Shown: positions 342 through 31,560 of the stretch, one piece after another | Layout: each line of letters starts with the position of its first letter | Numbering within the stretch: the stretch's first letter is position 1 | Source of the DNA: Pseudomonadota bacterium | GTDB taxonomy: Bacteria > Desulfobacterota > Desulfobacteria > Desulfobacterales > JBDRRP01 | Length of the DNA: 33,545 nt | Assembly (NCBI GenBank): GCA_043825735.1 | Contig: JBDRRP010000050.1 | Location: 62,001-95,545, forward strand | Reading direction: 5' to 3' | The notes under the pieces: generated by a model | Database searches by the model: none | What the model saw: only the letters and a program-made list of their open reading frames with translations | Told to the model about the DNA's origin: nothing | Program-made: the position numbers and the translations under genes

Positions 342-401
342 TCACACTCCTTTCGAGAGTTCCCATCATGCCGTGCCGGCGTCTCGATTGCAACCACCGG
401 T

Positions 402-530
402 GATGCATTCGTAAAAAGTCGGGATCTCTCGCAAAGCCGCCAAGATCGCAAAGTTAACGCAATCATATTAAATAATTTCCTTGGCGCGCTTGGCGTCTTT
501 GCGAGAAAATTGCTTTTTTATGACTTCATC
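402..530. repeat. Nested intergenic inverted-repeat element (REP/MITE-like)
   Basis: Outer arms GATG..CGTAAAAAGTC / GCTTTTTTATGACTTCATC enclose inner arms TCTCGCAAAGCCGCCAAGATCGCAAAG (427-453) / CTTGGCGCGCTTGGCGTCTTTGCGAGA (480-506) around an AT-rich spacer. Confidence 0.75.
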
Positions 531-615
531 GTCCTTGCGTGTCCCGACGCTGCAGTTTTTGTTGACCTGGACTCCCGTTGCCGGTAGTCAGGAACGTTCG
601 CCCGCCAAGGAGAGG

Positions 616-5134: not shown

Positions 5135-6274
5135 ATGAAAAGCACTTTGGTAAAAAGGTATTGGCTGAGTTTACTTGTGGCTGTCGCAACAGTATGCAGC
5201 GCACCTGCCTTTAACGCTCTTTCTCACGCGAGTACAACTGAAACCGCATTCCTGCTGGTTTCCGATGAGGCGCCGGGGGCCGCTGTTTTTCAGGATATTT
5301 CTGGAAACAATATCCAGGTGACACCGACGGGGAATACCAACCACAGCGCGGCTCAGTCCAAATTTGGCGACACTTCGATTCGATTTGATGGAAGTGGTGA
5401 CTACCTGACACTATCGCAGGATCCGCTCTACAATGTCGGATCCGGGAATTTTACAATTGATATGTGGGTTTTTCTGAATTCTCCGGACGCCATTTTCTTC
5501 TGGAATTACGACTTCAACAGTGGTGGTGGCTTGCAGGTCTATCAGGGGTCTGGCCAATTGGCTGTAATGGTGGGAGGAGCACCATCATTATTGACAGCTG
5601 GCCCCTTGCCGACCGGTATGTGGAATCATCTGGCAATAGTGAGAAATATCACTCAATTGTCAGTCTATGTAAATGGCGGCCTCGTCGCTGCTACCACATT
5701 GTCCAGTGCTTATGCAGTTTCGAGTAATCCAACGAGTTTCGGCTGCATTGCTTCGATTCCTACAGTTTATCCTATGAACGGATATCTGGAAGCGATTCGG
5801 TATACTAAGGGGGCCATTTGGACCAGCAGCTTTACTCCTCCAACAACAGCTGCGCCTGTTATGCCCGCCAGATGGCAGACTACTGACAATAACGCCTTAG
5901 TGACAGAAGGCTGCATTGGCATCGGTACGGCCACGCCCCAATCGGCGCTTGCGGTGAATGGAACCGTCACCGCCAAAGAAGTCGTGGTGACAGACGCCGG
6001 GTGGGCCGATTTTGTCTTTGACGAGGGGTATGTCGTTCCTGAGATCGGCGCCGTAGAAACCTTCATCAAGCAAAACGGCCGCTTGCCGGGGATCCCGCGT
6101 GCTTCGGTCATCGCAGAATCGGGCATCAGCGTTTCTGAAATGTTTCGTCTCCAGATGCAGAAGATCGAAGAGTTGACCCTGTACATGATCGCTCTTGAGA
6201 AGAAGAACCGGGAAATGGGCGAAAAGATTCGGTCGATGGAGGCGCAGCAGGGCCACCATCTGAGTCATGAATGA
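5135..6274 (+). CDS. Secreted LamG-domain protein with tail-fibre/intramolecular-chaperone-like (S74-related) C-terminus
   Basis: RBS AGGAG, ATG 5135, signal peptide. LamG motifs AQSKFG..FDGSGDYL, NFTIDMWV, WNHLAIVR, VYVNG, GYLEAIRYTKG. C-terminus GIGTATPQSALAVNG...WADFVF...LPGIP...KIEELTLY plus coiled coil. Confidence 0.8.
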   Translation: MKSTLVKRYWLSLLVAVATVCSAPAFNALSHASTTETAFLLVSDEAPGAAVFQDISGNNIQVTPTGNTNHSAAQSKFGDTSIRFDGSGDYLTLSQDPLYNVGSGNFTIDMWVFLNSPDAIFFWNYDFNSGGGLQVYQGSGQLAVMVGGAPSLLTAGPLPTGMWNHLAIVRNITQLSVYVNGGLVAATTLSSAYAVSSNPTSFGCIASIPTVYPMNGYLEAIRYTKGAIWTSSFTPPTTAAPVMPARWQTTDNNALVTEGCIGIGTATPQSALAVNGTVTAKEVVVTDAGWADFVFDEGYVVPEIGAVETFIKQNGRLPGIPRASVIAESGISVSEMFRLQMQKIEELTLYMIALEKKNREMGEKIRSMEAQQGHHLSHE

Positions 6275-6330
6275 TGGTTTTACCTAAAAGCGCTCCCGTC
6301 ATGACACGTTTCTCCGAAAGCGAGTTTCAC

Positions 6331-8748
6331 ATGGCTAAAATCAACACCCTTGTCGGCTTGTTATTCGTGCTCCTCATTGCCTCCCCGGCCCTGGGGGAAA
6401 TGGATGTTCTCCTCAGAGACGCGGCCGTCGTATCCGGAACAACGGCGGCATACACGGCCAGCCGGTCGATTACCGCCGGGCCGAGTTATGTGGTTGAAAA
6501 CGGGGCGACATTGTCGCTTTACGCCGGGCAAACCATCACCCTGCTGCCTGGTTTTCACGCCCAGGCCGGCAGCGCCGTTCTGCTGCACGTTACCGGTGAA
6601 GATGCCGTCCCGCCGACGATACTGAGCGCATACCCGGCAGATGCTGACGTTATCGCCTCCCAGGGCAATCCGGTGACACTGCTAATCGCCTTCTCCGATG
6701 CGCATTCCGGCATCCGCACCGTGACGCTGCTCGACGGGCTGGGAAACGACATCAGCACCCAGGCCATTATCGATGGGGACTCTCTTGAATACGTCATCGA
6801 TGCTACTGGCGATGCGGATTATTCGTTCACGATCATTATCGAAGATCTGGCCGGAAACACCGTGACCAAGGTGATGTCCTTCAGAATCGATGCGACGATC
6901 CCGGTAACGACCGTTGACACCGCCGGCGAGCAGTTCACAGACCCCGTAAGCATCTCCTTTGGATGCTCCGAGGACGCCACCATTTACTACTCTACCGACG
7001 GGTACCCGCCGTTCATCGGTGCGGCCAACACGATCGTCCTCCCCGCTGCGGCGGCGGCCCTGACCATCGACGGCACCACGCGCCTGACCTATTTCGCGGT
7101 GGATGCGGCCGGCAATGTCGAGGAGACGAAAAGCGTCGTTTACTATTTCGACGATATCCCGCCGACGGTGACCGAACTGTCTGCAACGTACAACGCCGGC
7201 AGCGATCGAATTGAACTGGCGTGGCAGGTTCCGGCCGTGCCGGTTGCCTCATATCAGCTATACCGCGCCATCAGCCTCCACGACCTGAAAATTCTTGAAG
7301 ACAGCCGGACTGGCGGTTACCGGCCTCCGGAGCGCTTGCGCCTCGCCGCCGGGCAGACCACCGGCACCAGCTTCAACGACACCGACATCATGCCCGGTAT
7401 CACTTACTGGTACGGGGTCACTGTCATAGATGCGCTGGGTCAGGAAAGCCTGATCTCATGGCTGGTGAATGCCACCTCAACGGCCGTAACCACCGCACAG
7501 ACCCGGGAGGAGGCCATCGCCAAGGCATTGACCTGGCTCGAAGCCTATCAGCAACCGACCGGTTTTTGGGGAAATAGCCGGCGCCTGAAAACCATCGCCA
7601 CCATCCATGCGCTGGATCTCTTCCGGCAACATGATGTCGATTCCGCCGGCATCCGCAGCGGCGTCTATGCACTGAGAGGCGCGCCGGCCCTGAACAACGA
7701 TTTTCTGGCCCGTCGCATCGCCACGCTGTCTTCCTACGGGCAGAACGTCGATGCCGAAATGGCGCAGCTCATCGTCAATGCCCATCGCATCGGCGACCAG
7801 TTGAACGGTTGGGGCATCCAGAAGAACTATTTCCCCGATCCTGTCGACATCGTGCTGGGCGCTAAAGCCGTTGAGCAGTCCGGCACCGCGCTGACATTTC
7901 CCAATGAATGCTACAATTCCCTTCGCGACTGGCATGCGCCGCTCAACGAGAACTACAATATCCGCAGCGCAGAGGCCGACAAGTTCGCGTGGGTGAACCT
8001 GGGCGAGCCGAGCATTTATGCCTCGGCCATGGCCTATGCCGTCATGGACGCCCATTACCGAGACGATGCGCCGGTGATCGATTACCAGTGGATCATAGAC
8101 GCACAGCAGGAAGACGGTTCGCTTGGCGGAAGCCTCATGGACACTGCCGGTGTGCTGCTGTGGCTGGACATCCCCGAGAGCGCCCGCACCGCAGCGGTGG
8201 GTTATTTGGTGTCACAGCAGGCAGCCGATGGCAGTTGGGACGCCAGCCCATTCACCACGGCCCTGTGTGCCAAGGCGCTCACCGCGGCACATCCCTTCGG
8301 TCACAAAAAACACGCCTTCGGTGGAAGCGACTACGCTTTTTCAATATTCAAGGATGGCTGGGACTTTGCCGGGGACGACTTCACTTTCACCATGAAGGTG
8401 AAACTCGTCGATGACGGCCGAAGGTTTCACGGGCTCGCATCTCAAAACCAAAGTTGGAGAATCCACTACGACCGGCTTTACAACATCATCGCATTGAATG
8501 CTGCCGACGGCAGCGTCAGCTTCAACACCAATGCGCTCGGCGACCTTCTCTTCGATGGCAGTACCCACACCGTCGAAGTGAATCGGACGGGTAGTCTCTG
8601 GCGGATATGGGTCGATGGCAGCCTGCAAAGCTATTACACCAACGCCAATGCCATGCCCGATCTCGACCGCCGCCGGTATATCGGCAGGGTCAACCTTGGC
8701 AGCGGGTGGGATTACCTAAACGGAGAGATCGAAATCATAATGCCATAG
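6331..8748 (+). CDS. Secreted multidomain protein: beta-stack ('ITLLPGFHA') + Ig-like + chitobiase-C/Fn3-associated + FN3 + prenyltransferase/squalene-cyclase-like alpha-barrel + LamG-like
   Basis: Signal peptide MAKINT...SPALG. Motifs DLAGN, ATIYYSTDG, AVDAAGNVE, FN3 (LAW..YQLYR..TYWYGV), QW-type repeats QQPTGFW, QQEDGSL, QQAADGSW, and C-terminal HTVEVNR..IWVDG. ORF is open from 6271; start uncertain. Confidence 0.75.
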   Translation: MAKINTLVGLLFVLLIASPALGEMDVLLRDAAVVSGTTAAYTASRSITAGPSYVVENGATLSLYAGQTITLLPGFHAQAGSAVLLHVTGEDAVPPTILSAYPADADVIASQGNPVTLLIAFSDAHSGIRTVTLLDGLGNDISTQAIIDGDSLEYVIDATGDADYSFTIIIEDLAGNTVTKVMSFRIDATIPVTTVDTAGEQFTDPVSISFGCSEDATIYYSTDGYPPFIGAANTIVLPAAAAALTIDGTTRLTYFAVDAAGNVEETKSVVYYFDDIPPTVTELSATYNAGSDRIELAWQVPAVPVASYQLYRAISLHDLKILEDSRTGGYRPPERLRLAAGQTTGTSFNDTDIMPGITYWYGVTVIDALGQESLISWLVNATSTAVTTAQTREEAIAKALTWLEAYQQPTGFWGNSRRLKTIATIHALDLFRQHDVDSAGIRSGVYALRGAPALNNDFLARRIATLSSYGQNVDAEMAQLIVNAHRIGDQLNGWGIQKNYFPDPVDIVLGAKAVEQSGTALTFPNECYNSLRDWHAPLNENYNIRSAEADKFAWVNLGEPSIYASAMAYAVMDAHYRDDAPVIDYQWIIDAQQEDGSLGGSLMDTAGVLLWLDIPESARTAAVGYLVSQQAADGSWDASPFTTALCAKALTAAHPFGHKKHAFGGSDYAFSIFKDGWDFAGDDFTFTMKVKLVDDGRRFHGLASQNQSWRIHYDRLYNIIALNAADGSVSFNTNALGDLLFDGSTHTVEVNRTGSLWRIWVDGSLQSYYTNANAMPDLDRRRYIGRVNLGSGWDYLNGEIEIIMP

Positions 8749-8913
8749 ATGGTGCGGTTGCAGACCAAAGATTCAATGCATCGGCCCGTTTTTGAAAAGG
8801 TGAACCTGGCTATGCACTATTCTCCAGTGGATGGGCGAGATCGAATTGGGCAAACAAGACGAGTCGTTGCAACGAAGCATCCATGCATGCAAAACCATAT
8901 GGGAACCCAAACC

Positions 8914-11900
8914 ATGCGAAAGATTATACTCATCGGCATCATCGCGAGTTCTTTCCTTCTCACCAACGGATGGGCTGCCGAAGCGCCCGGCGAAGCGTAT
9001 CTGGCCCAGACCATGGAGTGCCGCTTCACGCCGGAGCTGACCGCGCTGGCCGAAAGCCTCGATCACGATCCGGTGAGCATTTATAACTGGGTCTACGAGA
9101 ACGTGGCGTATGAGGACTACCGCTGCTCCAGAAAGGGCGCGCGCTCGACGTATCTTTCCCGCCGAGGAAACGAGTGGGACCAGAGCAGCCTGCTGATCAC
9201 CCTGTTGCGCATCTCGGGTATTCACGCCAGGTATCGCCAGATCGGCGGAGATGCGCGAGTTATCGTGGAAGCATGGCTGCCCACCGCCAACTACCGCGGA
9301 ATGCCGTTTGGCGATGAAAAGGATTGGATTCCCCTGATCCCCTGGCTCAAGAATACGCGCAAAACAGCCGGAATCGATCTCTTCGAAAACGACGTGATCC
9401 CGCCGGCCCTGGCGTTCGATTTCGACGGCTACCTCACCCAGCACCGGCAGAAAACCGCCATCGAGCTTTTTCAGGAAAGCGTCCGCGATTACCTGGCGGC
9501 CAATTACCCGGACAAGACCATTAAGGATGTGCCGGCCCGCGAAACACTGATTCAGCGCCCGCTCGCGGTGCTGCCGTCAAGCCTTCCTTTGGCCATCGAT
9601 CGCGTGGCTGAAAGCGCCTATTACGACGCAGTCCCTGAATCGGAACGTGAAAGCATCACGCTGTATATCAAAAACGAAGCAGGCGGTGCGGTGCTTTTAG
9701 AGAGAGAAATTTATCTGCCGGAGGTGGCCGGGCGACGATTCACTCTGGAATTTAATCAGGGCGCGGCCGGCTGGTTGATCCCGGTATTCAAACTCGACGA
9801 CGAGATCATTCAGGAAGGCGCTGCCATTCTTGCAGATGCCAATTTTTTCCCGGCTTTCGAGAGCGATTGGTATGCATATACGGCAAGGCCGTCGAAGAAT
9901 GCAGGTACTTATATGCTCATGGCGTTTGACCCGCTATCGGCCTCAGAAAACGACGTCGAAATGCTCAAGGACGAACTGGGTCAGTTGAGCGCCTCAATGG
10001 TATTGGACCCTGCCACCCGCGGGCAGTATCTCGGCCGCATCGCATCCGTCATCATGAACACCTATCTGATACGCTACCTGCAGAATACAAATGCGGCGGC
10101 CGACCTCCTACACCTGGGCCTAATTTATGCCGGGCAATGTCCGACGTTCATTTATACGTCAACGGATAACCTACCCACCGTGTCGGATGCTAAATTCATT
10201 GTACATCCTCAATGGAGTTTCGATTCATTTTTTGCCTCGGTGAAAGCCTATCATGCCGATGACCCGCTTAGGACGCTCATCGACAACAGCTCACCGATGG
10301 CCGAATTGCTGTGCAAGCTTTATATGTTCAGTGCCTCTTACAATGAAGGACGCATTTTCGAAGACTGGCAGGATACAAAAGCCTTGAGCACGATCCGGGG
10401 CATCATGGCGGCCCACGAGCAGGGAATACCAGTGGTTGATCTGACGGCCGCGGATATCGTTAACGACACGATTCCTGTTCTTGCCAACCAGAGCACGAAC
10501 AAGTTGCCGGATGGGGTGATCGCCGGAATGGTGGATGAGCTTCAGGAAGGGCAGGAGATCAAGACACCCGTCCAGAGCATCGGTTTTGAAGATATTAACG
10601 GCTATGTTTACCTGAGCTATGGGCCGACTTACAGCAGCTATGTCTTCAATGGAGATATGGGGGCAAAGGCTGTCCTCAATGCGCTGGAGAGCGTTAGAAC
10701 GGCTTTAAAAGGAGAGCTGCCGCCGGACCTGCAGGCCATTTACGACAAGTACAAAGGAAAAGATAGCAACGGGGCTGAAGTCATACAAAATAGCAAGGCC
10801 GATGAGAATAAAAGCTTTGCCGGCGCGATTGCCAGTTTCATTGGCGATCCAATTGATATGGTTACCGGGGAGTTTTATGCGGAAGAGCAGCCGGATATCA
10901 ACATACGCGGCCGTGGCCTGCCGCTGAACGTGACACGCAAGTACCGAAGTCAGCTGCTGTACAACGGCCCTTTTGGTTACGGCTGGACGTGGAATCACTC
11001 AGACGAACTGATAGTGTATGATGGGGGCGATGTCGTTTACAACAATACAGATGGCAAGCACATATACGTTTCGTACGATGCCACCGAAGGTTACCAATAC
11101 CCCCCCGGCATGACCTTTACCCTGGTGCAGACCGCTATTGGTTACGAGATCCACAACAAAGATCTCAGCAAAATCTATTTCGATGCCAACGGTCGCCTCG
11201 TATCCAAAGCTGACCCTGATGGCAACACGCTGAGCTTTGCCTACGATGCAGAGGGGCACCTGTCCACCATCACAGACGATCTGGGCCGCAGCCTCACGTT
11301 CATCGTCGGCGCCAATGGCAAGATCACCCGGGTCACCGACTTCACCGGGCGATACTGCGAGTATGCCTACAGCGGCGACGACTTGATCAGTTTCACTGAC
11401 CTCGAGGGAAACACCACAACCTTCGAGTACTATGCCGATCTCGACAACCCTCAGAACCTTCACAATCTCACCAAGTACATCCTGCCCACCGGCGACTACC
11501 TTGAAATCGGTTACTACAAAAACGACCAGGTGGCCTTTCACAGAAACAAAAAGGGCGAGGTCTTCAACTTCCAATACAGCCGGCTCAACAAATACGGCGA
11601 GACCTGGAACGAGGAAGGCTACTACCGCAAGGTTTTCTTCAACGACCAGAACGATGTCATCCGCATCACCAACGAGGATAAAACCCTCGAAACCATGACC
11701 TATGACACCAATCACAACAAGCTCACCCACACCGATGCCAACGGGCACACCACCACCTTCACTTACGACGACAAACGCAACCTCACCTCGAAAACCAACG
11801 CGCTGAATGAGGCTTGGGCTTATGTCTACAGCAACCCACTTGTCAACAAGCCCACTGCGGTCACAGACCCACGCGGGAACACTACGCAGTATGAATATAA

Positions 11901-14900
11901 TGCACAGGGCCGCGTTACTAAAAAGACCGACGCGCTTTTGAACGAAACCGATTTCAACTACGATCAGTACGGCAACCTGGTCCAGGTCACCGACGCCCTA
12001 AACCACTGGGAAGCTTTCGTCTACGACGCCAACGGCCTCCACCTGGTATCGAGCCTCGATAAAAACGGCAACGAGACGCACTTCGCCCATGATGCCATCG
12101 GGCGGGTCGTCTCCGCCACCGACTCCCAGGGGCATGCGACCCAGTTCGCCTTCAACGCCTACGACCAGAAGACCGTGGTCACAGATGCCCTGGGCAACCA
12201 GACGTCTATCACCTACAACGCCGTCCGCCAGCCGGTATCGCAAACCGACGCCAGGGGCGGGGTCACCCGGATAATTTATGACACCGCCCGAGACATAGTG
12301 ACCGGTGCCAAGGTAAAAGAAAAGATCGACCCGTTGGGGTACCGCGAGTACTTCTACCATGACCGCGTGGGGAATCTGGTCTGGCAGGAGGACAAAAAAG
12401 GCAACATACACACATTCGTTTACGACGGCCTGGGCCGCCGGACCGAAACCATCGATCCTTTCAAAAACGTTGTCCGCGACCGTTACGACGGCAGCGGCAA
12501 CCGTGTCGAAAGCATCGATAAGCGCGGGTTTGTCACCGGCTATGCGTTCGATGCCGAAAACCGGCCCACCAGCGTTACGGATCCTCTGGGAAATACGGTC
12601 ACCAATACCTACGATGCCAACGGCAACCTAAGCACAGTGACGGATGCCAACGGCATTGTCACCCGTCTTGAATACGATGCGCTGAACCGTATGGTCCAAA
12701 AAACCCTGGCCTACGGCAGCGCCGATGCCGCAGTGTTTCAATACGAATACGATGCCCTGGGCCGGCTCACAAAGACGACCAATCCACTCGGTCACTATGA
12801 AACCTACGGTTACGATGCCAACGGCAACCGCGTAAGCATTGCCAAGTACCAGTCCGATGGTTCCCTGCTGGCCACCCAGGCGTTCGAGTACGACGCCCGC
12901 AATTTACCTTTTGAGGAGACCGGACCGACAGGATCTGCGACAACCTATGAATACGATGCCATGGGCCGAAAGACCGCCATGATCGATCCGGCCGGAAACC
13001 GCACCGAGTATGCCTACAACGAGACGGGTAATCTGGTGGCCGTGACCGATCCGCTCTTTAACATCATAAAGCATGAATATGACCTGCGAGGGCAGCGCGT
13101 GCTTACAATCGATGCCGAAGGCGGCGAAACTGCCTATCGCTACGATGGCAACGGCAACCTCGTCTGGCAGCGCGATGCCGATGGCAACGAGACAGGGATT
13201 TTCTACGATGCGTTAAACCGGAAAATCGGTATCCGGGACGCGGTGGGCGCCGAAACCAGCTTCGACTACGATCCTGCAGGCAACCTCATCGCACAAAACG
13301 ACGCCAACGGCGGTGTGACGCGTTTTGAGTACGATGCGGTTGGGCGGAAAGTGAAGACGATTCGCCCGATGGGTGAGGCGTTCAGTACAGAATATGACGC
13401 CGCGGGAAACAAGACAGCCGTCATTGATGCCATGGGGCAGAAAACCGCTTACAATTACAACGATCTGTACCAGATCGAAACCGTCTCCTATTATGCCGCC
13501 GCCGATTGGGTGACGCCGGTAAAAACCGTTTCGTTCACCTACGATGAAATGGGCAGCCTGCTGTCCTATGACGACGGCACGACTTCGGCCCTTTACGGCT
13601 ACGATGCCCTTGGCCGTAAGACCGCCGAGTCAGTGGATTACGGCCCCTTCGCCCTGAACCATTCCGTCACCTACCGGGCCGATGGCCAGAAAGCCTCCTA
13701 TACGGGACCGGACAATGCCACCGTCAGCTATGGCTATGACGCCTACGACCGCTTGACCGATATCAACTTGCCTGGAGGCGCCCAGGTGAGCTATGCCAAT
13801 TTCGAGTGGAACCGTCCAACGACGGTAGCAATGCCTGGCGGCGTTACTACCACATACGCATATACGGCAAAGCAACAGGTTGCCGCGATCACCACAACAG
13901 ACGGCGCTGCCTCGACCATATTCAGCCGGCATTACGAGTACTCGCCGGCGGGCAACATTACGGCAAAGCACTCCGAGCACGGCACCTACACCTACCAGTA
14001 CGACGCCGTGAACCAGTTGACCCAGGCAAACAACCCGACCTTATCGGGAGAAGCTTATGGCTACGACCTGTTAGGCAATCGCATGAGCACTGCCACTGCC
14101 AGCGGGTTCACCTACGATTTGAATAACCGGTTGTTGGCCCATGATGGCACAACGTTTGATTATGACCTAAACGGCAATACGACCTCGAAAACGACCGGTG
14201 GGGTCTTCACCCGTTTTTATTACGACACCTCGGATCGATTGGCCCGCGTGGCAGACAGTGGTGGCGGCACCATCGCTGAATACAGCTACGATCCCTTCGG
14301 GCGCAGGCTTTGGAAGGATGTCGGTGGCACGCGAACCTATTTCTTTTATACCGATGAAGGCCTGTCCTGCGAGTACGGTGTTACTGGGCAGGAACTGAGG
14401 ACCTACGGTTACCGGCCGAATCCGGGGTGGACCACCGCACCGGTGTATATGATAGAGGCCGGAGTCTACTATTACTACCTAAATGACCACCTGGGTACCC
14501 CGCAAAAGGTGGTTGACTCTGCAGGAGGCGTTGCTTGGGAGGCTATATTTGAAAGCTTCGGTGTTGCGCATGTGGCGGGTGGTGCGGTCGTTATAAACAA
14601 CGTGCGGTTTCCGGGCCAATACTACGATGCAGAAACAGAATTGTATTACAATTGGAACAGATACTATGATCAAAAGATTGGAAGGTATTTGAGAAGTGAC
14701 CCCGCAGAGGATGGGGTCAACCTTTATCTCTATGTTCGCAATAATACGATAAGATTTTTTGACCCAAACGGCTTAACAACATTAGCCAGAGCCCAATGTG
14801 GTATAGTAAACGGGGGTAAAACTGTTGGTGGCGGATATATGAATTGTCGTATTAGGACAGAATGCCGGGGGGGCTCTCAGCAAGTGGCAATGTATGAGGC

Positions 14901-15240
14901 AACTTTTGCAGGTGGAACGTACGGTGATAATGTTGTCAGTGCTATTTGGACGTATTATGATTTAGAGTTCTATGATATTAGCCAATTAAACGGCAACGTT
15001 TCAATGGTTTCAGCTACAGTTGCGGCTGGCGTAGGTTTTACTTACGGTAATGCGTGCTTTGGGAGAGTATGCGTAAATAACTCAGCAAACCCGGTGATGG
15101 GTATTGGATATGGGCCTACACTTCCGGGTTTGGAGGCGACATTAGATGCCTTTTTCGGTGCCGGTAGTATAACAATAATAGGGGATGTGAACTGCTCAAA
15201 TGAAGAGACGGAATTAATACTGGCACCTGAGATGCCATAA
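8914..15240 (+). CDS. Rhs/YD-repeat polymorphic toxin with signal peptide, transglutaminase-like N-terminal domain, DUF6531-like segment, Rhs core and 154-aa C-terminal toxin tip
   Basis: Signal peptide MRKIILIGII...GWA. IYNWVYENV..GNEWDQSSLLITLLRISGIHARY; GDPIDMVTGEF..GPFGYGW; dozens of YD repeats; DHLGTP, RFPGQYYDAET..YNWNRYY..GRYLRSDP; DPNGL at 14761-14775. ORF is open from 8749. Confidence 0.93.
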   Translation: MRKIILIGIIASSFLLTNGWAAEAPGEAYLAQTMECRFTPELTALAESLDHDPVSIYNWVYENVAYEDYRCSRKGARSTYLSRRGNEWDQSSLLITLLRISGIHARYRQIGGDARVIVEAWLPTANYRGMPFGDEKDWIPLIPWLKNTRKTAGIDLFENDVIPPALAFDFDGYLTQHRQKTAIELFQESVRDYLAANYPDKTIKDVPARETLIQRPLAVLPSSLPLAIDRVAESAYYDAVPESERESITLYIKNEAGGAVLLEREIYLPEVAGRRFTLEFNQGAAGWLIPVFKLDDEIIQEGAAILADANFFPAFESDWYAYTARPSKNAGTYMLMAFDPLSASENDVEMLKDELGQLSASMVLDPATRGQYLGRIASVIMNTYLIRYLQNTNAAADLLHLGLIYAGQCPTFIYTSTDNLPTVSDAKFIVHPQWSFDSFFASVKAYHADDPLRTLIDNSSPMAELLCKLYMFSASYNEGRIFEDWQDTKALSTIRGIMAAHEQGIPVVDLTAADIVNDTIPVLANQSTNKLPDGVIAGMVDELQEGQEIKTPVQSIGFEDINGYVYLSYGPTYSSYVFNGDMGAKAVLNALESVRTALKGELPPDLQAIYDKYKGKDSNGAEVIQNSKADENKSFAGAIASFIGDPIDMVTGEFYAEEQPDINIRGRGLPLNVTRKYRSQLLYNGPFGYGWTWNHSDELIVYDGGDVVYNNTDGKHIYVSYDATEGYQYPPGMTFTLVQTAIGYEIHNKDLSKIYFDANGRLVSKADPDGNTLSFAYDAEGHLSTITDDLGRSLTFIVGANGKITRVTDFTGRYCEYAYSGDDLISFTDLEGNTTTFEYYADLDNPQNLHNLTKYILPTGDYLEIGYYKNDQVAFHRNKKGEVFNFQYSRLNKYGETWNEEGYYRKVFFNDQNDVIRITNEDKTLETMTYDTNHNKLTHTDANGHTTTFTYDDKRNLTSKTNALNEAWAYVYSNPLVNKPTAVTDPRGNTTQYEYNAQGRVTKKTDALLNETDFNYDQYGNLVQVTDALNHWEAFVYDANGLHLVSSLDKNGNETHFAHDAIGRVVSATDSQGHATQFAFNAYDQKTVVTDALGNQTSITYNAVRQPVSQTDARGGVTRIIYDTARDIVTGAKVKEKIDPLGYREYFYHDRVGNLVWQEDKKGNIHTFVYDGLGRRTETIDPFKNVVRDRYDGSGNRVESIDKRGFVTGYAFDAENRPTSVTDPLGNTVTNTYDANGNLSTVTDANGIVTRLEYDALNRMVQKTLAYGSADAAVFQYEYDALGRLTKTTNPLGHYETYGYDANGNRVSIAKYQSDGSLLATQAFEYDARNLPFEETGPTGSATTYEYDAMGRKTAMIDPAGNRTEYAYNETGNLVAVTDPLFNIIKHEYDLRGQRVLTIDAEGGETAYRYDGNGNLVWQRDADGNETGIFYDALNRKIGIRDAVGAETSFDYDPAGNLIAQNDANGGVTRFEYDAVGRKVKTIRPMGEAFSTEYDAAGNKTAVIDAMGQKTAYNYNDLYQIETVSYYAAADWVTPVKTVSFTYDEMGSLLSYDDGTTSALYGYDALGRKTAESVDYGPFALNHSVTYRADGQKASYTGPDNATVSYGYDAYDRLTDINLPGGAQVSYANFEWNRPTTVAMPGGVTTTYAYTAKQQVAAITTTDGAASTIFSRHYEYSPAGNITAKHSEHGTYTYQYDAVNQLTQANNPTLSGEAYGYDLLGNRMSTATASGFTYDLNNRLLAHDGTTFDYDLNGNTTSKTTGGVFTRFYYDTSDRLARVADSGGGTIAEYSYDPFGRRLWKDVGGTRTYFFYTDEGLSCEYGVTGQELRTYGYRPNPGWTTAPVYMIEAGVYYYYLNDHLGTPQKVVDSAGGVAWEAIFESFGVAHVAGGAVVINNVRFPGQYYDAETELYYNWNRYYDQKIGRYLRSDPAEDGVNLYLYVRNNTIRFFDPNGLTTLARAQCGIVNGGKTVGGGYMNCRIRTECRGGSQQVAMYEATFAGGTYGDNVVSAIWTYYDLEFYDISQLNGNVSMVSATVAAGVGFTYGNACFGRVCVNNSANPVMGIGYGPTLPGLEATLDAFFGAGSITIIGDVNCSNEETELILAPEMP

Positions 15241-15275
15241 TCGAATAAATCGGTCAAAATATGAATTGATAGAAA

Positions 15276-15770
15276 ATGAATACTAAATATTTTATTCTAC
15301 TATTATCATTATTAATTGTTGAAATGACGTTATTGGCAAGATGGAATAGACTGTACTTGCGATATGGTCTCCCAATTTACTTCAAGAAAATAGCCCTAAA
15401 TAATACTTTTAATGACGGAGCATCTAAAAAAATAAATGGTGCACTCAAATGCTTGCCTATTGGTTATGAGTATAGAGAGATAGAAAATAATGTATTTGCT
15501 TTACGAGACAGTTTCGCTCGGTTTTCAGCGAATTCACTTATGCGAGGAATAATTATCTATGATTCGAAAAATAATACAGTTCGTATATATGGGCATCTCT
15601 ATTTATCGATCGTTGCGATTTTTGCATTTGTTCTGTCGGTACTCGGCCCTGCTGTAATTCCCTTTTGTATAATTATCTTTAGTATACCATATATAAGAAA
15701 CAGAATTGATTTCAATAAAATTGCCGATATCATCAAAAATACAAGGGACACCCATTTGGAGCAATGGTAG
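15276..15770 (+). CDS. Putative immunity protein (membrane) for the main Rhs toxin
   Basis: AT-rich small ORF 35 bp after the toxin stop; N-terminal and two C-terminal hydrophobic segments. Confidence 0.7.
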   Translation: MNTKYFILLLSLLIVEMTLLARWNRLYLRYGLPIYFKKIALNNTFNDGASKKINGALKCLPIGYEYREIENNVFALRDSFARFSANSLMRGIIIYDSKNNTVRIYGHLYLSIVAIFAFVLSVLGPAVIPFCIIIFSIPYIRNRIDFNKIADIIKNTRDTHLEQW

Positions 15771-15960
15771 AGTAGAGGGCAGATCAGAGGGAAGACATAA
15801 GGGTCACCCATTAAAGGACTCGTCAAGTAAATTGAAATGGGGTCGCACCGAGATATCCTATTGCAAACACACATATTATCATCCAAATTATAGGTGTTTG
15901 TATAGGCTATTTCGTCCTTTTCGGGGCCAAAAACGGTCATATAGAAAAAGCGAAGACATA

Positions 15961-16633
15961 AGGCTCAAACCTACACATTGACAAAACGATTTGTGTATCG
16001 ACCGAGCAAAATATCAATGTAAACTTTAACCGAACAGCCCTACGGATGGCCCGTCAATTACGTATAGAATACCCAGGTGCGTATTACCATGTGACTTCTC
16101 GCGGTAATGAGCGAAAGGCTGTGTATAAAAGCCGGCGCGATTGCGAGCAGTTTCTATCCTATTGGGATATTTTGGAGAAAATGTATTCGAAGCCATGCAA
16201 AGGTACCAACGTTTCCTGGGTTCTGTTAGCGGCGCAGAACTGATCAGTCCTCGGAAGGAGAGGCTTCATTCCGTAATACTGGGCAGTCAGGAATTTATTG
16301 ATAATATAAAGAAGCAATATTTAAGCCATATAGAGCCAGATCGCGAACTGCCTGAGCTAAATGATCAGCCTAATAAAATCGGTATTGAAGACATTGAAAA
16401 TGCTGTGAACAAAGTGTTCGGTACAGACAAAAGGCTTGCCCGCCAAGTGAAACTGTATCTAAGCCACCGATACACTGGTCTTAAACTTAAGGAAATAGGC
16501 CAGTGGTATAGAATTGGGCAATCCGGTGTCACTCAGGCAAGCCGTAGAGTTCAGAATCGTATTGACATGGATCGGAAATTCAAGCGCACCGTTTTGAAGG
16601 CTAAGCGGTTTGTCAATGTGTTGGTTTGACCCC
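15961..16633 (+). mobile_element. Defective RAYT-like (Y1/IS200 superfamily) element bounded by 25-bp imperfect inverted repeats
   Basis: AGGCTCAAACCTACACATTGACAAA (15961-15985) versus the reverse complement of 16609-16633 (GGGGTCAAACCAACACATTGACAAA): 22/25 match. Confidence 0.75.
16046..16629 (+). pseudogene. Internally deleted RAYT-type tyrosine transposase with C-terminal DnaA-like HTH
   Basis: The N-terminus MARQLRIEYPGAYYHVTSRGNER jumps near 16155 into another frame encoding ILGSQEF...LYLSHRYTGLKLKEIG (HTH). HUH motif and catalytic Tyr region are absent. Confidence 0.8.
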
Positions 16634-16770
16634 TATTTCCTGTGGGTGGGATCGGCACTGCAGGTGCGGAAGTTGGTGGGTATGCAGAGGGCTTATTTCA
16701 TGGCCTTATGTCAGGGGCCACGAATGAGGCAAGCGAATATGCGCCGGATGTTATAGGAGCGATGTTTTGA
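16634..16770 (+). pseudogene. Probable remnant 3' end of an orphan toxin tip
   Basis: Startless open frame VGGIGTAGAEVGGYAEGLFHGLMSGATNEASEYAPDVIGAMF* whose TGA (16768-16770) overlaps the TTG start of the next gene. Confidence 0.5.
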
Positions 16771-17024
16771 ATTTACTAAATTTATACTTTAAACTTCGCA
16801 AAGTCTTCTTTATTTTTATCTTCGTATCATTGCCAGCATATTTTTTAATTATGGGCCTCATATTTAAAGGAAAAACAGGCCTATGGGCTGGGATATTCTT
16901 TCTGTTTATACTGCTAATATTTGACTTATACTTCTATAAATGTCAAAGCTGCAGAAAGAGAAATTTCATGAATGAGCATGATAGAATATGTAAGTTTTGT
17001 GGTCGAGATTATCAAAATCTATGA
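16767..17024 (+). CDS. Small membrane protein with C-terminal CxxC...CxxC (putative immunity protein)
   Basis: Two hydrophobic helices then CQSC...CKFC; AT-rich; AGGAG upstream. Confidence 0.6.
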   Translation: MNLLNLYFKLRKVFFIFIFVSLPAYFLIMGLIFKGKTGLWAGIFFLFILLIFDLYFYKCQSCRKRNFMNEHDRICKFCGRDYQNL

Positions 17025-17094
17025 GAGAGTGTTGGGCGAGGGTAATAGGGGACACCGCGTGCGATTCCGGGTCGATAGATTGGGGGTCGGGTTC

Positions 17095-18099
17095 CGGGTC
17101 GGGCCACGCTATGAGATCAATATTGCACAAATAGTTGGATAGGCATTGTCTAAATGAAGCCCTTAATCGAGCAGTTTTCCCCGAAAACTGCATTGTTAAG
17201 AAAGTCGGCTCACAATGGCACGCGCAAAAAGGCATTACATCCCCGGTCATGCCTGGCATATCACCCAACGCTGCCATAAAAGAGACTTTCTTCTCAAATT
17301 CCCCAGAGATCGACGAAGATGGATCGAGTGGCTTTATCGAGCCAGGAAAAAGTATCCAGGTCTGAGTGTGTTGGATAATATGGTCACCTCAAACCACATC
17401 CACCTGCTGGTGTATGATACCGGCGGCCGGAACGTGATCCCCGATTCAATCAAGTTGATAGGGGGCCGAACAGGTCAGGAGTACAATATACGTAAAAACA
17501 GAAAGGGTGCTTTCTGGGAAGACCGCTATCATGCAACCGCCGTGGAGAGTGGCCGATATTTAAGGCAATGCATCGCCTACATAGATATGAACATGGTTCG
17601 CGCCGGTGTTGTAAAGCATCCATCCGAGTGGGGTTTTTGTGGTTATAACGAGATCCAGAACCCTCGGAAGAGAAAGGGGATCATCGATTTTAATCGACTG
17701 ATTGGATTGTTGGGCTTGGAGAGCTACGAAGATTTAAAGGATTCCCATTTCAAATGGATTGAGAGCAGAATCGAGAAAGCTTCCAGTAAAAGGGAACTCA
17801 AGTGGAGCCAGAGCGTTGCAGTAGGTAGTGCAGAATATTTAGAAAAGATAAAAAGGAATCTTGGTTTTAGAGCCAAGGGAAGAAAGATCATCGACAGTGG
17901 CGGAATCTTTGAACTAAGAGAAGGGTTGGAACCATGTAGGTTCCCGGATCGTCTGGGTTGCACGAATATTTCGCGATGGAATAAACGCTAGTCAGATAAC
18001 CGGCCGGTTTTGGGATAAAACTGGCCAATTAAGCAGGAAATATCGCTAGAAAATATAATCTTTTCACGACTTGTCAGTAAGTTGCTGCGGCCCGACCCG
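17095..18099 (+). mobile_element. RAYT-like element bounded by 11-bp inverted repeats
   Basis: CGGGTCGGGCC (17095-17105) / GGCCCGACCCG (18089-18099). Extra GGGTCG copies at about 17068 and 17084. Confidence 0.65.
17215..17991 (+). CDS. RAYT-type Y1 HUH transposase, apparently intact
   Basis: MARAKRHYIPG..WHITQRC; HUH motif SNHIHLL; RKGAFWEDRYHA; catalytic-Tyr segment AYIDMNMVRAGVVKHP. Confidence 0.88.
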   Translation: MARAKRHYIPGHAWHITQRCHKRDFLLKFPRDRRRWIEWLYRARKKYPGLSVLDNMVTSNHIHLLVYDTGGRNVIPDSIKLIGGRTGQEYNIRKNRKGAFWEDRYHATAVESGRYLRQCIAYIDMNMVRAGVVKHPSEWGFCGYNEIQNPRKRKGIIDFNRLIGLLGLESYEDLKDSHFKWIESRIEKASSKRELKWSQSVAVGSAEYLEKIKRNLGFRAKGRKIIDSGGIFELREGLEPCRFPDRLGCTNISRWNKR

Positions 18100-18113
18100 A
18101 ATCCGCGAATCAC

Positions 18114-19013
18114 GCTGTCGTTACAAATAACTTGCGTTTTCCTGGGCAGTACTACGATATTGAAACAGGATTACATTACAATTGGAATCGGTATTTTGAT
18201 CCAATTACAGGTAGATATTTTAGGAGTGACCCTGCTGAAGATGGAATAAACATATATATGTATGCACAAAATAACCCCACAGCATCGTATGATCCAGAAG
18301 GCCTTATGGCGAAAGAAGCTTACAATAAATGGGAAGGCATTTCTGTTGATATTTGCAGCACAGCATTTGATCATTGGTATCCGATTACTCAAGAAGGATA
18401 CGCTAATGCAATAAAATACTGGTACTATACAGATTCAGGTGTAAATATTATTAACAACATTGTTGATGAGTTAAATTATAGCTATACTTGGAATAAGAAT
18501 TTCTTTGCGAGTTCAAATAATGTATTTGAGAGAGGCTTTGATATAAGAAATTATACTAATAAGTATACCGTCCTCGGCTATAATACAGGTGGAAGCTACA
18601 CAGGGATAGGAACAAAATTCGCTATCAGTTCAGCAATAACGTTCGATTGGTCTGGAAATTTGACGTACACTTCTTCTATTGATGCAGGGGCGGGTCAAGG
18701 AAGAGATTTAAGCCTTTTTGGAAATGTTATTGTCGGCATTGGTCGGGGGCTTACTTCATCGAAGTTTGGAGAAAACTCTTTCTCCGTCTCAGGGAGTCAC
18801 CATATAACGGAAACGGTTGCCCTAACAGGTGCTGTGACCACCCCAATTGATAAAACTAATAACGGTGATTGGCATTTCGTTGAGTCGGGACTATCATTTA
18901 GTACCCCTTGGGGAACGAAAGGAGAGATTGGCGAAACCATAGGAAAAGGAGAGTCATATACAATCAACCTGGTAGATGTTCTTAATAATATATTTGAATA
19001 TAATCCACAATAG
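18114..19013 (+). CDS. Orphan Rhs core fragment plus alternative 235-aa toxin tip
   Basis: AVVTNNLRFPGQYYDIETGLHYNWNRYFDP..GRYFRSDPAEDGINIY; DPEGL at 18291-18305. Possible TTG start at 18132, no clear RBS; probably a silent cassette. Confidence 0.85.
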   Translation, partial: AVVTNNLRFPGQYYDIETGLHYNWNRYFDPITGRYFRSDPAEDGINIYMYAQNNPTASYDPEGLMAKEAYNKWEGISVDICSTAFDHWYPITQEGYANAIKYWYYTDSGVNIINNIVDELNYSYTWNKNFFASSNNVFERGFDIRNYTNKYTVLGYNTGGSYTGIGTKFAISSAITFDWSGNLTYTSSIDAGAGQGRDLSLFGNVIVGIGRGLTSSKFGENSFSVSGSHHITETVALTGAVTTPIDKTNNGDWHFVESGLSFSTPWGTKGEIGETIGKGESYTINLVDVLNNIFEYNPQ

Positions 19014-19025
19014 CATTGATATATT

Positions 19026-19460
19026 ATGATCATTTTCGTGTCCATTTTATTGCTCATTGTAGGGTTTCTTCTAATAGATATATTCTTAATCGGATTTATT
19101 CCTAGCCTTTTAGGTATTTATCCTTCTTATCTAAAAATTAAGAGGGATATTCTCATTGAGGACAGGTCATTCGAATATGGCGTTGATACCAATCTCTTTC
19201 CTTTTTATAAAGTAATATTGAAATCTATATTAATCACGAAAAAACGCCTGTATGTTAGACACACCTACTTGGCCTGTGCAAGAACTATTCGAATAGATCA
19301 AATATGCGGTTTTCAAATTAGCAATCCAATTTTATTCAGTGGGCGTAGAGTCAAGCTACTGATAAAAGAGGAAAATGAGATCAAGTATTTTTCATTTAGA
19401 ACAAAAATTCCAAATGAATGGGTCAAAGTTTTACATGAGGTTGGGATACATCAAATTTAG
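19026..19460 (+). CDS. Putative immunity protein (N-terminal membrane anchor) for the orphan toxin
   Basis: 12 bp after the orphan stop; AT-rich; hydrophobic N-terminus; ITKKRL segment suggestive of a PH-like beta domain. Confidence 0.65.
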   Translation: MIIFVSILLLIVGFLLIDIFLIGFIPSLLGIYPSYLKIKRDILIEDRSFEYGVDTNLFPFYKVILKSILITKKRLYVRHTYLACARTIRIDQICGFQISNPILFSGRRVKLLIKEENEIKYFSFRTKIPNEWVKVLHEVGIHQI

Positions 19461-19615
19461 TGAAAAACAAAAGGGTTACCCAGTAAAGAACGTGTCAATA
19501 GAGAAAACACCTCATCATAGGAGTTTTGAAGCCCAGTTTTTTGTTGTACACCAATACATGGAATTGTGGAAACAATGAAGCAAAGGGGTCACATCTTAAA
19601 TGAGGAGAAGGGGAT

Positions 19616-19876
19616 GTCCATGAATAAATAACTATCTTTAAATCTGCCGGTGCGCGCTGAAATGGTGTAGGGCTGAGATATCAATTTCGCCTTAAAGCAG
19701 AGTACGCGTTCACGGGGATCCATTGGGATAAGGCAACGACCCGCCTACACCCAAGCCAGATTCGGGGGCGCTCCCAGAAAATATGAGCGGATGGGGGAAA
19801 TGGACGTCCATGAATAAATAACTATCTTTAAATCTGCCGGTGCCCGCTGAAATAGTGCAGCGCTGGGTATCAATTT
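19616..19876. repeat. Direct repeat of about 70 bp with 190-bp period
   Basis: GTCCATGAATAAATAACTATCTTTAAATCTGCCGGTGC is identical at 19616-19653 and 19806-19843, continuing imperfectly to TATCAATTT. Confidence 0.9.
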
Positions 19877-19972
19877 AGCCAGGAAATCGAGATTGTCCAA
19901 AATAGTATTTATTGCAATCACTATTGGCAGGAAAGAGATTTGATATCGCAGTAACATCAGGGGGGATTCTCA

Positions 19973-20695
19973 ATGAAAAGATTTGTGGTTTACAGTATTA
20001 TCGTTGTGGTTTTGATTTCGCTGCTTTCTGTTGCTGCCGATGCTGAAGACGTCGTTGTTGAGTTGTCTACCGATGACGGTTCTTCCGGTCTGGTGATCAA
20101 AAACTCAGCCGGTATCGTTGTTGCCCGTATTGACTCTAAAGGCAGCTTTATTCAAAACGCGGGCCCTGTTGTGCCGCCTGGCGCCGTAATGGCCTTTGCC
20201 ACGGGAAACCCGCCAACAGGATGGTTGCACTGCAACGGGGCGGCCATCTCAAGAACTGATTATGCAGACCTTTTTGCCGCCATCGGAACGATGTACGGAA
20301 GCGGAGACGGTAGCACTACTTTCAACTTACCAGATTACCGGGGACAGTTTCTTCGTTCTTGGGACAATTCGGCAGGTCAAGACCCGGACAGAGCTAATAG
20401 AGCTGACAGAGGTGACGGGACTACCGGTGATAACGTCGGTACAAGACAGGCCGGCCAGTTGGCTTCTCATCACCATAGTGTCTCGGTGGCAGCAGCCGGC
20501 GGACACTCACACACTGTTGCTGGCGGCAGTGTCCTTTCGGATTATGGTGGCGGCGGCGTTGTTCGATACAGCGGGACATCCAGCGCGACAACCAGCGCCG
20601 CAGGCAGCCATGGTCATGCCGTGAGCCAGAGTTCAGTCGGTGGCAACGAAACGCGGCCGAGGAATGTCTCGGTGATGTGGGTGATCAAATTATAA
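19973..20695 (+). CDS. Signal-peptide-bearing phage tail-collar domain fibre protein
   Basis: Signal peptide ending AADA; collar motif PPGAVMAF..P.GWLHCNGAAISRTDYADLFAAIGTMYG.GDGSTTFNLPDYRG.F; HxH motifs (SHHH, GHSH, SHGH); terminal ETRPRNVSVMWVIK. Confidence 0.9.
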   Translation: MKRFVVYSIIVVVLISLLSVAADAEDVVVELSTDDGSSGLVIKNSAGIVVARIDSKGSFIQNAGPVVPPGAVMAFATGNPPTGWLHCNGAAISRTDYADLFAAIGTMYGSGDGSTTFNLPDYRGQFLRSWDNSAGQDPDRANRADRGDGTTGDNVGTRQAGQLASHHHSVSVAAAGGHSHTVAGGSVLSDYGGGGVVRYSGTSSATTSAAGSHGHAVSQSSVGGNETRPRNVSVMWVIKL

Positions 20696-21008
20696 AATCC
20701 AGGGAGCCGATTTCGACCCACTAATTCACAATTCAATTCTTGAGCCCATTGTCTCCCTCGCAATCTCTGAGCGCGCGCGTCATTCTATTGCCTATCAGCG
20801 CTTACCCGCCGAATTCGATCAGGCTCATGACTTCAGCAATTGCCCTTGATCTTGACAGGGCCTTCGGAACGCTGGAATATCATCGCACAAGATGAATTGG
20901 GTGCCATCACGCGATTCGTTTAGGGGAAGGCTGCCTGAAGCGGAAGCGTATCCCGCGTCGATAGCGGTTGTCATAAGTATGTTCTGAATCAACACGGTTC
21001 TACCCGTC

Positions 21009-21081
21009 GTCATGCCGGGCTTGATCCGGCATCCAGAGATCGCTTCGGAGCAACCTGGATCCCGGCCTTCGCCGGGATGAC
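21009..21081. repeat. REP-like palindromic doublet, same family as 4765-4845
   Basis: GTCATGCCGGGCTTGATCCGGCATCCAG...CTGGATCCCGGCCTTCGCCGGGATGAC. Confidence 0.78.
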
Positions 21082-21265
21082 ATCGGAGCTATGACTGGTC
21101 TATCGCATTGCCTTCAACACCCGACCAATCGGAACGTTATTATGACAATTACTATAAGAGCAACTTTCTGCTTTCTGACCTATGTGGGAGGAAATGTTGA
21201 AAAATAAATTCTTTAGTAACTTTTTGAACAAACCGGATATATCTGCGGAGGAGGGCGGACAGACG

Positions 21266-23267: not shown

Positions 23268-23453
23268 TCAGGATTTGTCCTTGTTTGGCGGCGCGGTGCA
23301 TTTTCCCCGGTCACAGCGGCAGATGGCGCAGCGCTCGTCCGCGCACTGCTGACAGGCGAAACAGTCGGCGCAGGGGTGCTTTTTTGCCGTGATGAGGCAT
23401 CCCTCGGGAACAAAAACTTTCCCGGTGATGCCGGGCATGATTATAAAAGGCAT
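23268..23453 (-). CDS. Small Cys-rich hypothetical protein
   Basis: 61 aa; KHPCADCFACQQCADERCAICRC; RBS GGAG upstream; directly follows pyrB on the same strand. Confidence 0.6.
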   Translation of the reverse strand: MPFIIMPGITGKVFVPEGCLITAKKHPCADCFACQQCADERCAICRCDRGKCTAPPNKDKS

Positions 23454-23485
23454 CGCGCACTCCGGATCTCTTGCCCGCAGGGAGA

Positions 23486-24436: not shown

Positions 24437-24530
24437 TGTCTTCTCCCTCCATGGTGCGCGCAGTGAACGGGGTGTCTGGTATTGTGGGTTGCCATCCTTG
24501 TGATCGCCCGCTCTTAATACAGACAAACTT

Positions 24531-24654
24531 GCATAAAAGCGATTGTGAACCACAGAGACCGCAGAGGATCGCAGAGAAACTATGAATAATTAATGAGTTG
24601 TCTCTGCGCTCTCTGCGTCCTCTGTGGTGATTCCAGACTTTTTACATGGCCATC
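24531..24654. repeat. Nested inverted-repeat element with the same architecture as 402-530
   Basis: ACCACAGAGACCGCAGAGGATCGCAGAGA / TCTCTGCGCTCTCTGCGTCCTCTGTGGT around an AT-rich spacer; outer arm GACTTTTTAC..CATC. Confidence 0.8.
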
Positions 24655-24658
24655 AACA

Positions 24659-31466: not shown

Positions 31467-31560
31467 GTAGGGTGCGGGGTTTATCCCCGCCCGTGATCGG
31501 TGAACACAAACGATGGGGGTCATCTTCGCCGATTGCGGGAGGGGGTGACCTCTCCCCTAC
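31467..31560. repeat. GTAG-type REP doublet (REPIN-like)
   Basis: GTAGGGTGCGGGGTTTATCCCCGCCC ... GCGGGAGGGGGTGACCTCTCCCCTAC: two hairpins in inverted orientation with GTAG/CTAC feet. Confidence 0.8.

Follow-up and report, generated by a model that had tools for sequence, protein, structure and literature searches.

How does an Rhs toxin that starts with a signal peptide, and has no delivery machine encoded beside it, find and reach a target? The question is raised by a 33,545-nucleotide stretch of DNA (the window), which forms the terminal 33.5 kb of contig C50 in a 6.8 Mb genome of the order Desulfobacterales. Rhs toxins mounted on the spike of a type VI secretion system (T6SS) are well understood. 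How signal-peptide-bearing Rhs and teneurin-like shells reach targets without a visible delivery machine is named as an open question in the available part of the discussion of PMC13018210. Here we describe a gene (6331-8748), directly upstream of the Rhs gene of the window (8914-15240), whose product we call the partner. It was found at every closely related locus that could be judged, and a barrel domain in it is predicted to dock on the N-terminus of the Rhs protein. Our reading, to which we assign a probability of about 0.6, is that Rhs, partner and an immunity gene make up a Sec-exported two-protein toxin module, with an optional secreted third protein encoded in front and an orphan toxin cassette behind.

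An earlier note on this DNA had described four co-oriented genes with signal-peptide-like N-termini. The open reading frames (ORFs; positions in Table 1) and a scan of the N-termini agree with that description. The scan, here and below, used our own heuristic, which looks for a basic n-region followed by a hydrophobic h-region and a cleavage motif of small residues; all three were seen at the N-termini of all four products.

A partner gene accompanies TGase-type Rhs genes

We gathered loci by the Rhs N-terminus, which carries a transglutaminase (TGase)-type domain, from reference genomes and metagenomes. Counting the window, the search yielded 35 close TGase-type loci, which fall into 27 clusters at 95% nucleotide identity. 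Twenty-three clusters, in which the upstream sequence spans 1.5 kb or more, were evaluable; four (L033, L081, L085 and L092) were too short upstream to judge. A homologue of the partner core lay directly upstream of Rhs, co-oriented and tightly spaced, in 23/23 evaluable distinct loci, and was present too at L047, where the Rhs gene is cut by the contig end. The hosts of the module are Desulfobacterales, Syntrophales, Scalindua, Verrucomicrobia, Lentisphaerae, Phycisphaerae and one gammaproteobacterium. Among 31 Rhs loci without the TGase N-terminus (10 of them with at least 6 kb of upstream sequence) the partner was found at none.

Within the order, the Rhs N-terminus and the partner barrel have their strong matches in an identical set of 5 among 401 genomes, on the same contigs, and weak matches to both co-occur in two further genomes. 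The module is absent from the same-genus and same-family genomes searched, and is therefore scattered and probably mobile. The earlier note had placed the multidomain protein of 6331 with Rhs; the adjacency, the shared genomes, a fused form and a predicted complex that passes its controls (both below) bear this out.

Some TGase-type loci are related to the window more distantly. At four of them (L093:1-5094, L094:2-9241, L100:3-9170 and L109:3-2213) a giant co-oriented upstream gene is also present. The giant upstream proteins of distant loci carry MG2, PA14, CARDB, FG-GAP, DUF11 or PKD domains, and the L093 protein has QW-like repeats at its N-terminus.

A fused form and a predicted complex

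In one protein (P0043) the barrel, Ig, TGase, DUF6531 and RHS parts are joined in a single chain, the barrel aligning with that of the partner across the whole domain (25% identity, E 7e-07). As a separate observation, the Rhs frame at L033:3-1052 continues without a stop for 350 residues ahead of the TGase region and includes an Ig-like domain; this Rhs, on a short contig, might have an N-terminal extension or be a fusion.

The earlier note had proposed modelling the Rhs N-terminus together with the 6331 protein. We predicted the complex of mature Rhs residues 1-560 with partner residues 255-632 and obtained a score of 0.66, the best of three controls scoring 0.00. Among solved complexes 116 of 157 come up to this mark, and among mismatched pairs 2 of 215; as the alignments were our own, these figures apply here only approximately. 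At least 81% of contacts are shared between runs, and the predicted local distance difference test score (pLDDT) of the partner is at least 85. In the contacts of lowest error, the Rhs loop L220-P-x-S-L-P225 and strands near Y127 and W138 meet a face of the barrel formed by N455, D457, W554, S561 and D604. These residues, with P221 and L224 of the loop, are invariant or nearly so; in the loop, L220 is invariant and P221, L224 and P225 are kept in 12-13 of 14 rows. The prediction supports binding of Rhs and partner.

Two enzyme folds that have lost their catalytic motifs

We analysed both sides of the predicted interface. The AlphaFold2 (AF2) model of the partner (mean pLDDT 79.6; predicted template-modelling score, pTM, 0.70) consists of beta-sandwich domains followed by an (alpha/alpha)6 barrel at model residues 365-632. 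In VIA-align comparisons with class II terpene cyclases, the barrel was closest to 8zg0 (Z 22.9, root-mean-square deviation (r.m.s.d.) 2.8, 241 aligned residues), and 1gsz gave Z 21.7, r.m.s.d. 3.2 and 250 aligned residues; the alpha-barrel that the earlier note had seen in the 6331 protein is thus borne out by model and fold match. Pfam finds CHB_HEX_C_1 and Ig in the partner, with squalene-hopene-cyclase matches below threshold, and motifs of the Q..DGSW (QW) type are present in the barrel. Foldseek comparison of the whole chain with A2M, TEP1 and C3 gave long alignments with low TM scores (0.21-0.23). DxDD is the catalytic motif of class II terpene cyclases, and CGEQ is the thioester motif of alpha-2-macroglobulin and thioester proteins. 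DxDD is absent from the barrel in all 14 aligned partners (a single D.DD, in L034, lies outside it), and CGEQ is absent in 14/14; judged by its sequence, the barrel is therefore probably not an enzyme.

Across loci the partner ranges from 653 to 3,192 residues. What is conserved is a core of about 560 residues, usually C-terminal, preceded by variable N-terminal arrays of MAM, cadherin, Ig, PKD, PASTA, beta-helix, TSP3, LamG, FG-GAP, LVIVD and F5/8C domains. A search with the core returned 104 representatives at E<=1e-30, some of which match the Ig stretch only.

In the Rhs protein, Pfam finds Transglut_core (PF01841, 6.2e-10), DUF6531 and the RHS core; the RHS repeats match PF05593 (1.6e-117) in 14 stretches and TIGR01643 (1.3e-108). 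The Rhs-associated core ends at residue 1950 in DPNGL, which we take to be the usual C-terminal autocleavage site of Rhs proteins, and is followed by 154 residues that belong to no family. The TGase domain matches 3isr at Z 12.4 (r.m.s.d. 3.1, 133 aligned residues) and TG2, TG3 and factor XIII at Z of about 10. The position of the catalytic Cys is occupied by E, S, Q, T, H or A, and never by Cys, in 13/13 aligned rows, as expected from the earlier note, which had called the TGase dead. For residues 225-560 no fold match exceeded Z of about 4 in a list filled by one domain, and Foldseek returned none at E<=0.001. NHL or teneurin-specific domains were not found by Pfam in the window Rhs. The architecture of TGase, RHS repeats and polymorphic toxin occurs in about 60 proteins, mostly from metagenome-assembled genomes of Desulfobacterales. 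In this module two enzyme folds, a transglutaminase and a class II terpene cyclase, both without their catalytic motifs, appear to have been reused as a protein-protein clasp.

Both proteins look exported. The signal peptide of the window Rhs, as called by the heuristic, is MRKIILIGIIASSFLLTNGWAA, with cleavage before E; signal-peptide-like N-termini were seen in 16/16 Rhs homologues and in 12/12 partners with a complete, unambiguous N-terminus.

Three further observations concern Rhs genes. In the metagenome locus L089 the Rhs frame is split into ORFs 7408-9183 (591 aa) and 9257-14059 (1600 aa), possibly by a frameshift or an assembly error. The genome of the window has a second, distantly related Rhs gene (G000:C145:75644-82075; 26-27% identity in the repeats). 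In two Desulfospira chromosomes (L040:19087-22779 and L042:18464-22681) a second Rhs with DUF6531 and RHS and without TGase directly follows the immunity gene of the module.

Table 1. Positions of the module and neighbouring features in the window.
Feature	Position	Strand	Evidence
Optional accessory protein: signal peptide, LamG, conserved C-terminal WADFVF...EELTLY domain, coiled-coil tail	5135..6274	+	Laminin_G_3 5.3e-15
Partner: secreted, adhesin-like; core of Ig, CHB_HEX_C, Fn3 and alpha/alpha barrel; C-terminal LamG-like domain	6331..8748	+	
3-coathanger stack domain, partner N-terminus	6451..6576	+	NCBIfam NF045639, 35 bits (cut-off 26)
Terpene-cyclase-like (alpha/alpha)6 barrel, predicted Rhs docking site	7489..8292	+	AF2 model residues 365-632
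Rhs polymorphic toxin: signal peptide, inactive TGase, unknown domain, DUF6531 plug, RHS shell, DPNGL, C-terminal toxin	8914..15240	+	
Inactive transglutaminase/papain-fold domain, mature residues 1-225	8980..9654	+	Fold match, Cys position
Conserved L-P-x-S-L-P loop, predicted to insert into partner barrel	9571..9588	+	Conservation, complex prediction
DUF6531, Rhs N-terminal plug region	10843..11064	+	Pfam 5e-17
DPNGL motif ending Rhs-associated core	14761..14775	+	TIGR03696 4.4e-20 ends here
C-terminal toxin domain, 154 aa, no family, 15% Gly	14776..15240	+	No Pfam match at E<=1; composition
Candidate immunity protein, three hydrophobic segments	15276..15770	+	Directly after toxin gene, hydropathy; no family
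Helix-turn-helix ORF	16141..16629	+	Between main and orphan cassettes
REP-associated tyrosine transposase	17215..17991	+	Pfam Y1_Tnp; NCBIfam REP_Tyr_transpos 63 bits, below cut-off 80
Orphan Rhs C-terminal cassette: core end, DPEGL, different 235-aa toxin	18132..19013	+	TIGR03696 1.5e-17
Candidate immunity protein of orphan cassette, N-terminal hydrophobic segment	19026..19460	+	Position, hydropathy
Secreted tail-collar protein, neighbour outside the module, related to prophage tail fibre	19973..20695	+	Collar PF07484 2.2e-24

How the module might work

In the module as we read it, Rhs and partner would each cross the inner membrane by their own signal peptides. Outside the cytoplasm the partner barrel is predicted to clamp the LPxSLP loop and the neighbouring strands of the dead TGase. 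The partner would thereby lend the Rhs shell a long, lineage-specific array of adhesin or lectin domains (3-coathanger, Ig, Fn3 and a C-terminal LamG-like domain in the window; cadherin, MAM, PKD, beta-helix and F5/8C elsewhere), and this array, to judge from its domains, may hold the shell on the producer surface or bind a target cell. The shell would then free the C-terminal domain, cut at DPNGL.

Several points weigh against this reading. Binding of the two proteins is a prediction, and the residues of the predicted interface are, on average, hardly more conserved than the domain as a whole (0.57 versus 0.53 in Rhs, 0.56 versus 0.51 in the partner). At eight distant TGase-type loci (22-25% identity) tblastn detected no partner, and hhalign of the partner profile against the upstream protein of one of them (L093) gave an insignificant probability of 2%. 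The signal-peptide calls come from the heuristic and not from SignalP, and the module encodes no component for outer-membrane translocation. Finally, the T6SS marker TssC was found in four of the five module-bearing genomes of the order, against 108 of the 401 (27%) overall, so that within this order the module may have some connection with a T6SS.

The near-average interface conservation would also fit another account, in which partner and Rhs are co-regulated and form no complex, the partner being an independent surface adhesin that joins cells and the toxin acting separately. The partner arrays (cadherin, MAM, PKD, Ig, beta-helix) are typical of adhesins, and a structure predictor can place non-binding chains side by side. 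However, the part of the partner that is conserved is the barrel-containing core, not the adhesin array, and adjacency at every evaluable locus with tight spacing, the fused form and the passed controls point to physical coupling. We therefore consider separate action of the two proteins unlikely.

Toxins, immunity genes and mobile elements

Two toxin cassettes lie in the window. The orphan cassette is 65.5% identical to the end of the main Rhs core over 58 residues, and both C-terminal toxin domains are glycine-rich (main 15%, orphan 11%). Neither the toxin domains nor the candidate immunity proteins match a Pfam family, even at E<=1, or an NCBIfam family, and an Atlas search with the main toxin domain gave leads that were all below 0.9. 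Because both candidate immunity proteins are, by sequence, membrane proteins, the cell envelope is the most likely target of the toxins.

The mobile-element genes at 16141-17991 have paralogues elsewhere in the same genome. Y1/IS200-like transposase genes or remnants stand beside the toxin end of the module at three loci (window 17215-17991; L043:2813-3355 and 18577-18693; L044:18427-18621), and such transposases may help to move cassettes.

The nature of the cassettes bears on whom the module is aimed at. It might be mainly a teneurin-like device for cell-cell recognition and adhesion, or be directed at eukaryotic grazers instead of competing bacteria. The available part of PMC13018210 reports YD shells that are exported by Sec, bear variable adhesion domains and have no delivery machinery, and the partner arrays include MAM, cadherin and F5/8C, all of which would suit such a device. 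The small gene that follows the toxin in the window and in related loci, and the orphan toxin/immunity cassette, are instead hallmarks of interbacterial polymorphic toxins, and we regard recognition or anti-grazer action as a still less likely main role.

A type VI secretion system is probably not required for retention of the module

Hcp and TssC are encoded elsewhere in the genome of the window, on contig C120, and Rhs might be cargo of this distant T6SS, its signal peptide being a membrane anchor or irrelevant. The excess of TssC among module-bearing genomes of the order would fit this; it is modest, and arises among related large genomes. However, Pfam searches of all large ORFs of the window found no VgrG, PAAR, Hcp, sheath, CdiB, Tc or phage structural families, which concurs with the earlier note, where T6SS, contact-dependent inhibition, Tc and phage structural genes were said to be missing; a chaperone gene is likewise missing from the window, and PAAR (PF05488) has no match anywhere in the genome. 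TssC was found in five of ten module-bearing genomes and not found in the other five, namely G002, which is 96% complete, and the Scalindua, Verrucomicrobia, Lentisphaerae and Phycisphaeraceae assemblies, of unstated completeness. These observations support retention of the module without a T6SS. Failure to find TssC in half of the carriers, together with signal-peptide-like N-termini conserved in all homologues, argues against T6SS dependence without amounting to proof, and we hold T6SS delivery of Rhs to be improbable. The Sec export suggested by the earlier note stands in so far as Sec-type N-termini are present and, by the heuristic, conserved, with the caveat that a T6SS exists elsewhere in the genome.

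An optional companion and an unrelated neighbour

The gene in front of the partner (5135-6274) had been described as encoding a LamG/fibre protein. The LamG domain is there; the label of fibre goes back to this domain, as the PHROG matches of the protein are limited to residues 25-242, the LamG part. The WADFVF/EELTLY domain has no match in Pfam, NCBIfam or PHROG. Immediately in front of the partner, 5 of the 23 distinct loci (the window, L035, L036, L089 and L090) have a gene with this domain and 18 do not, so that the co-occurrence with this Rhs type raised in the earlier note is real and only occasional. The domain family numbers 334 clusters in the length range searched, mostly in Bacteroidota and Desulfobacteraceae and mostly annotated as 'hypothetical', and it is widespread outside Rhs loci, with three copies in one module-bearing genome. 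We read the gene as an optional accessory, a facultative extra binder.

The tail-collar gene (19973-20695) is a neighbour and not a component of the module. Its product matches tail-fibre families in PHROG (phrog_523, 2.1e-38), and over 159 aa (residues 81-239) it shares 53% identity with the tail fibre of a prophage on contig C115 of the same genome (G000:C115; L072:9083-10312, minus strand). That fibre has a Phage_tail_fib N-terminal domain, and genes for a tail assembly chaperone and DarA adjoin it. By Pfam, the window copy has no Phage_tail_fib domain and no phage structural genes next to it; it starts with a signal peptide. The earlier note expected a tail-collar fibre to co-occur with this Rhs type, an expectation that failed: of the 23 loci, the window alone has the collar gene beside a TGase-type Rhs. 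None of the 16 genome loci or 58 metagenome loci has it, nor does any of five genomes searched, and it is missing from 3/3 other module-bearing genomes. Two candidate immunity genes, the transposase and the orphan cassette lie between it and Rhs.

The collar protein resembles the distal, receptor-binding part of the resident prophage fibre, has a signal peptide where that fibre carries its tail-attachment domain, and contains the motifs HHH, HSH and HGH. A role as receptor blocker or decoy is conceivable.

That the four secreted proteins assemble into one extracellular toxin-delivery particle with domesticated phage fibres, as the earlier note proposed from the signal-peptide-like N-termini of all four, is very improbable: the homology of the collar protein with phage tail fibres is genuine and the WADFVF gene does recur beside the module, but the collar gene was found next to this Rhs type only in the window, where other genes set it off from Rhs, and the WADFVF gene is missing at most loci.

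Flanks of the locus

The gene run is flanked by housekeeping genes, including transporters and carbamoyltransferases, and the G+C content drops to 0.38-0.47 at 15-20 kb, in the cassette region. Scans of the window for tRNA and Rfam families found nothing, and a promoter and terminator scan was uninformative, with 18 terminator-like sites where 18.3 were expected. Synteny with a same-genus genome (G062) extends through the left flank to about window position 2847; in G062 a short stretch matching window 23317-23464 follows about 100 bp after the end of this synteny. A clean insertion could not be drawn against G062, because the right flank of the window sits on a separate contig there.

An ORF at window 21182-23110 encodes acetyl-CoA hydrolase/transferase domains fused to a C-terminal GNAT acetyltransferase, and falls in a stretch of about 20 kb without counterpart at the same locus of the same-genus genome. 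Short intergenic repeat families are found at window 400-600, 20900-21200, 23100, 24500-24700, 31300-31700 and 33400-33545; they have tens to more than 150 copies in the same genome and are present too in same-genus and same-family genomes.

Relation to known systems

The strictly conserved partner gives a testable hypothesis of targeting or anchoring, with a constant docking domain, a hypervariable adhesin array and a specific predicted interface. Extending it to the class, dead-TGase Rhs toxins might be bipartite, a binding subunit and a cocoon, in which a modular receptor-binding partner docks through a repurposed terpene-cyclase barrel on the LPxSLP loop and a swap of arrays retargets the toxin. 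We put this extension forward tentatively and at less than even odds. If true, it would add a delivery route that is independent of the T6SS and spread over at least five phyla, and would explain concretely how Rhs and teneurin-like toxins without machinery locate a target.

T6SS Rhs effectors share with the module the DUF6531 plug, the RHS shell, the DPxGL core end, orphan cassettes and, with candidates in the module, immunity genes. They have a PAAR or VgrG-binding N-terminus, whereas here a signal peptide and a dead TGase take its place and no T6SS gene is nearby. WapA of Gram-positive bacteria is likewise a Sec-exported, surface-associated YD-repeat toxin with immunity; domains of its own fix it to the cell wall, in contrast to the module, which has diderm hosts and a separate conserved partner protein. 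Tc (ABC) toxins also combine an Rhs/YD cocoon enclosing a toxin with a separately encoded large binding component. In the module, however, the predicted docking is of barrel on TGase, and the candidate immunity genes point to bacterial targets; neither a TcA-like pore former nor a TcB SpvB or beta-propeller domain was found by Pfam in the ORFs of the window or in 102 neighbour ORFs of related loci.

Bacterial teneurin-like proteins, as far as the available part of PMC13018210 describes them, resemble the module in their Sec-exported YD/Rhs shells, polymorphic toxin, variable adhesion domains and downstream immunity gene, in having no known delivery machine, and in being rare and widely scattered. 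Their adhesion domains are in the same chain, whereas here they belong to a separate protein that is predicted to dock.

The closest relatives are the RHS toxins that Zhang, de Souza, Anantharaman, Iyer and Aravind (Zhang et al. 2012, PMC3482391) described, in the part of the paper available, as having a signal peptide followed by an inactive transglutaminase and filed under export by Sec and the type II secretion system, with the suggestion that the TGase anchors the toxin by peptide binding. With its signal peptide, TGase fold that has lost the catalytic triad, RHS repeats, variable toxin and downstream candidate immunity gene, the window Rhs is a member of this known inactive-TGase, Sec-type class; the earlier note had called the system undescribed, which goes too far for the Rhs architecture itself. 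The table of PMC3482391 gives no signature neighbour gene for the class, and none of the words prenyltransferase, macroglobulin and LamG occurs in the paper. No description of the upstream partner was found in the literature searched, the coverage of which excludes most subscription journals. Unlike the class as set out there, the module has a conserved upstream alpha/alpha-barrel protein as predicted ligand of the TGase, and it is this conserved partner, with its predicted docking, that sets the module apart from the known Rhs class.

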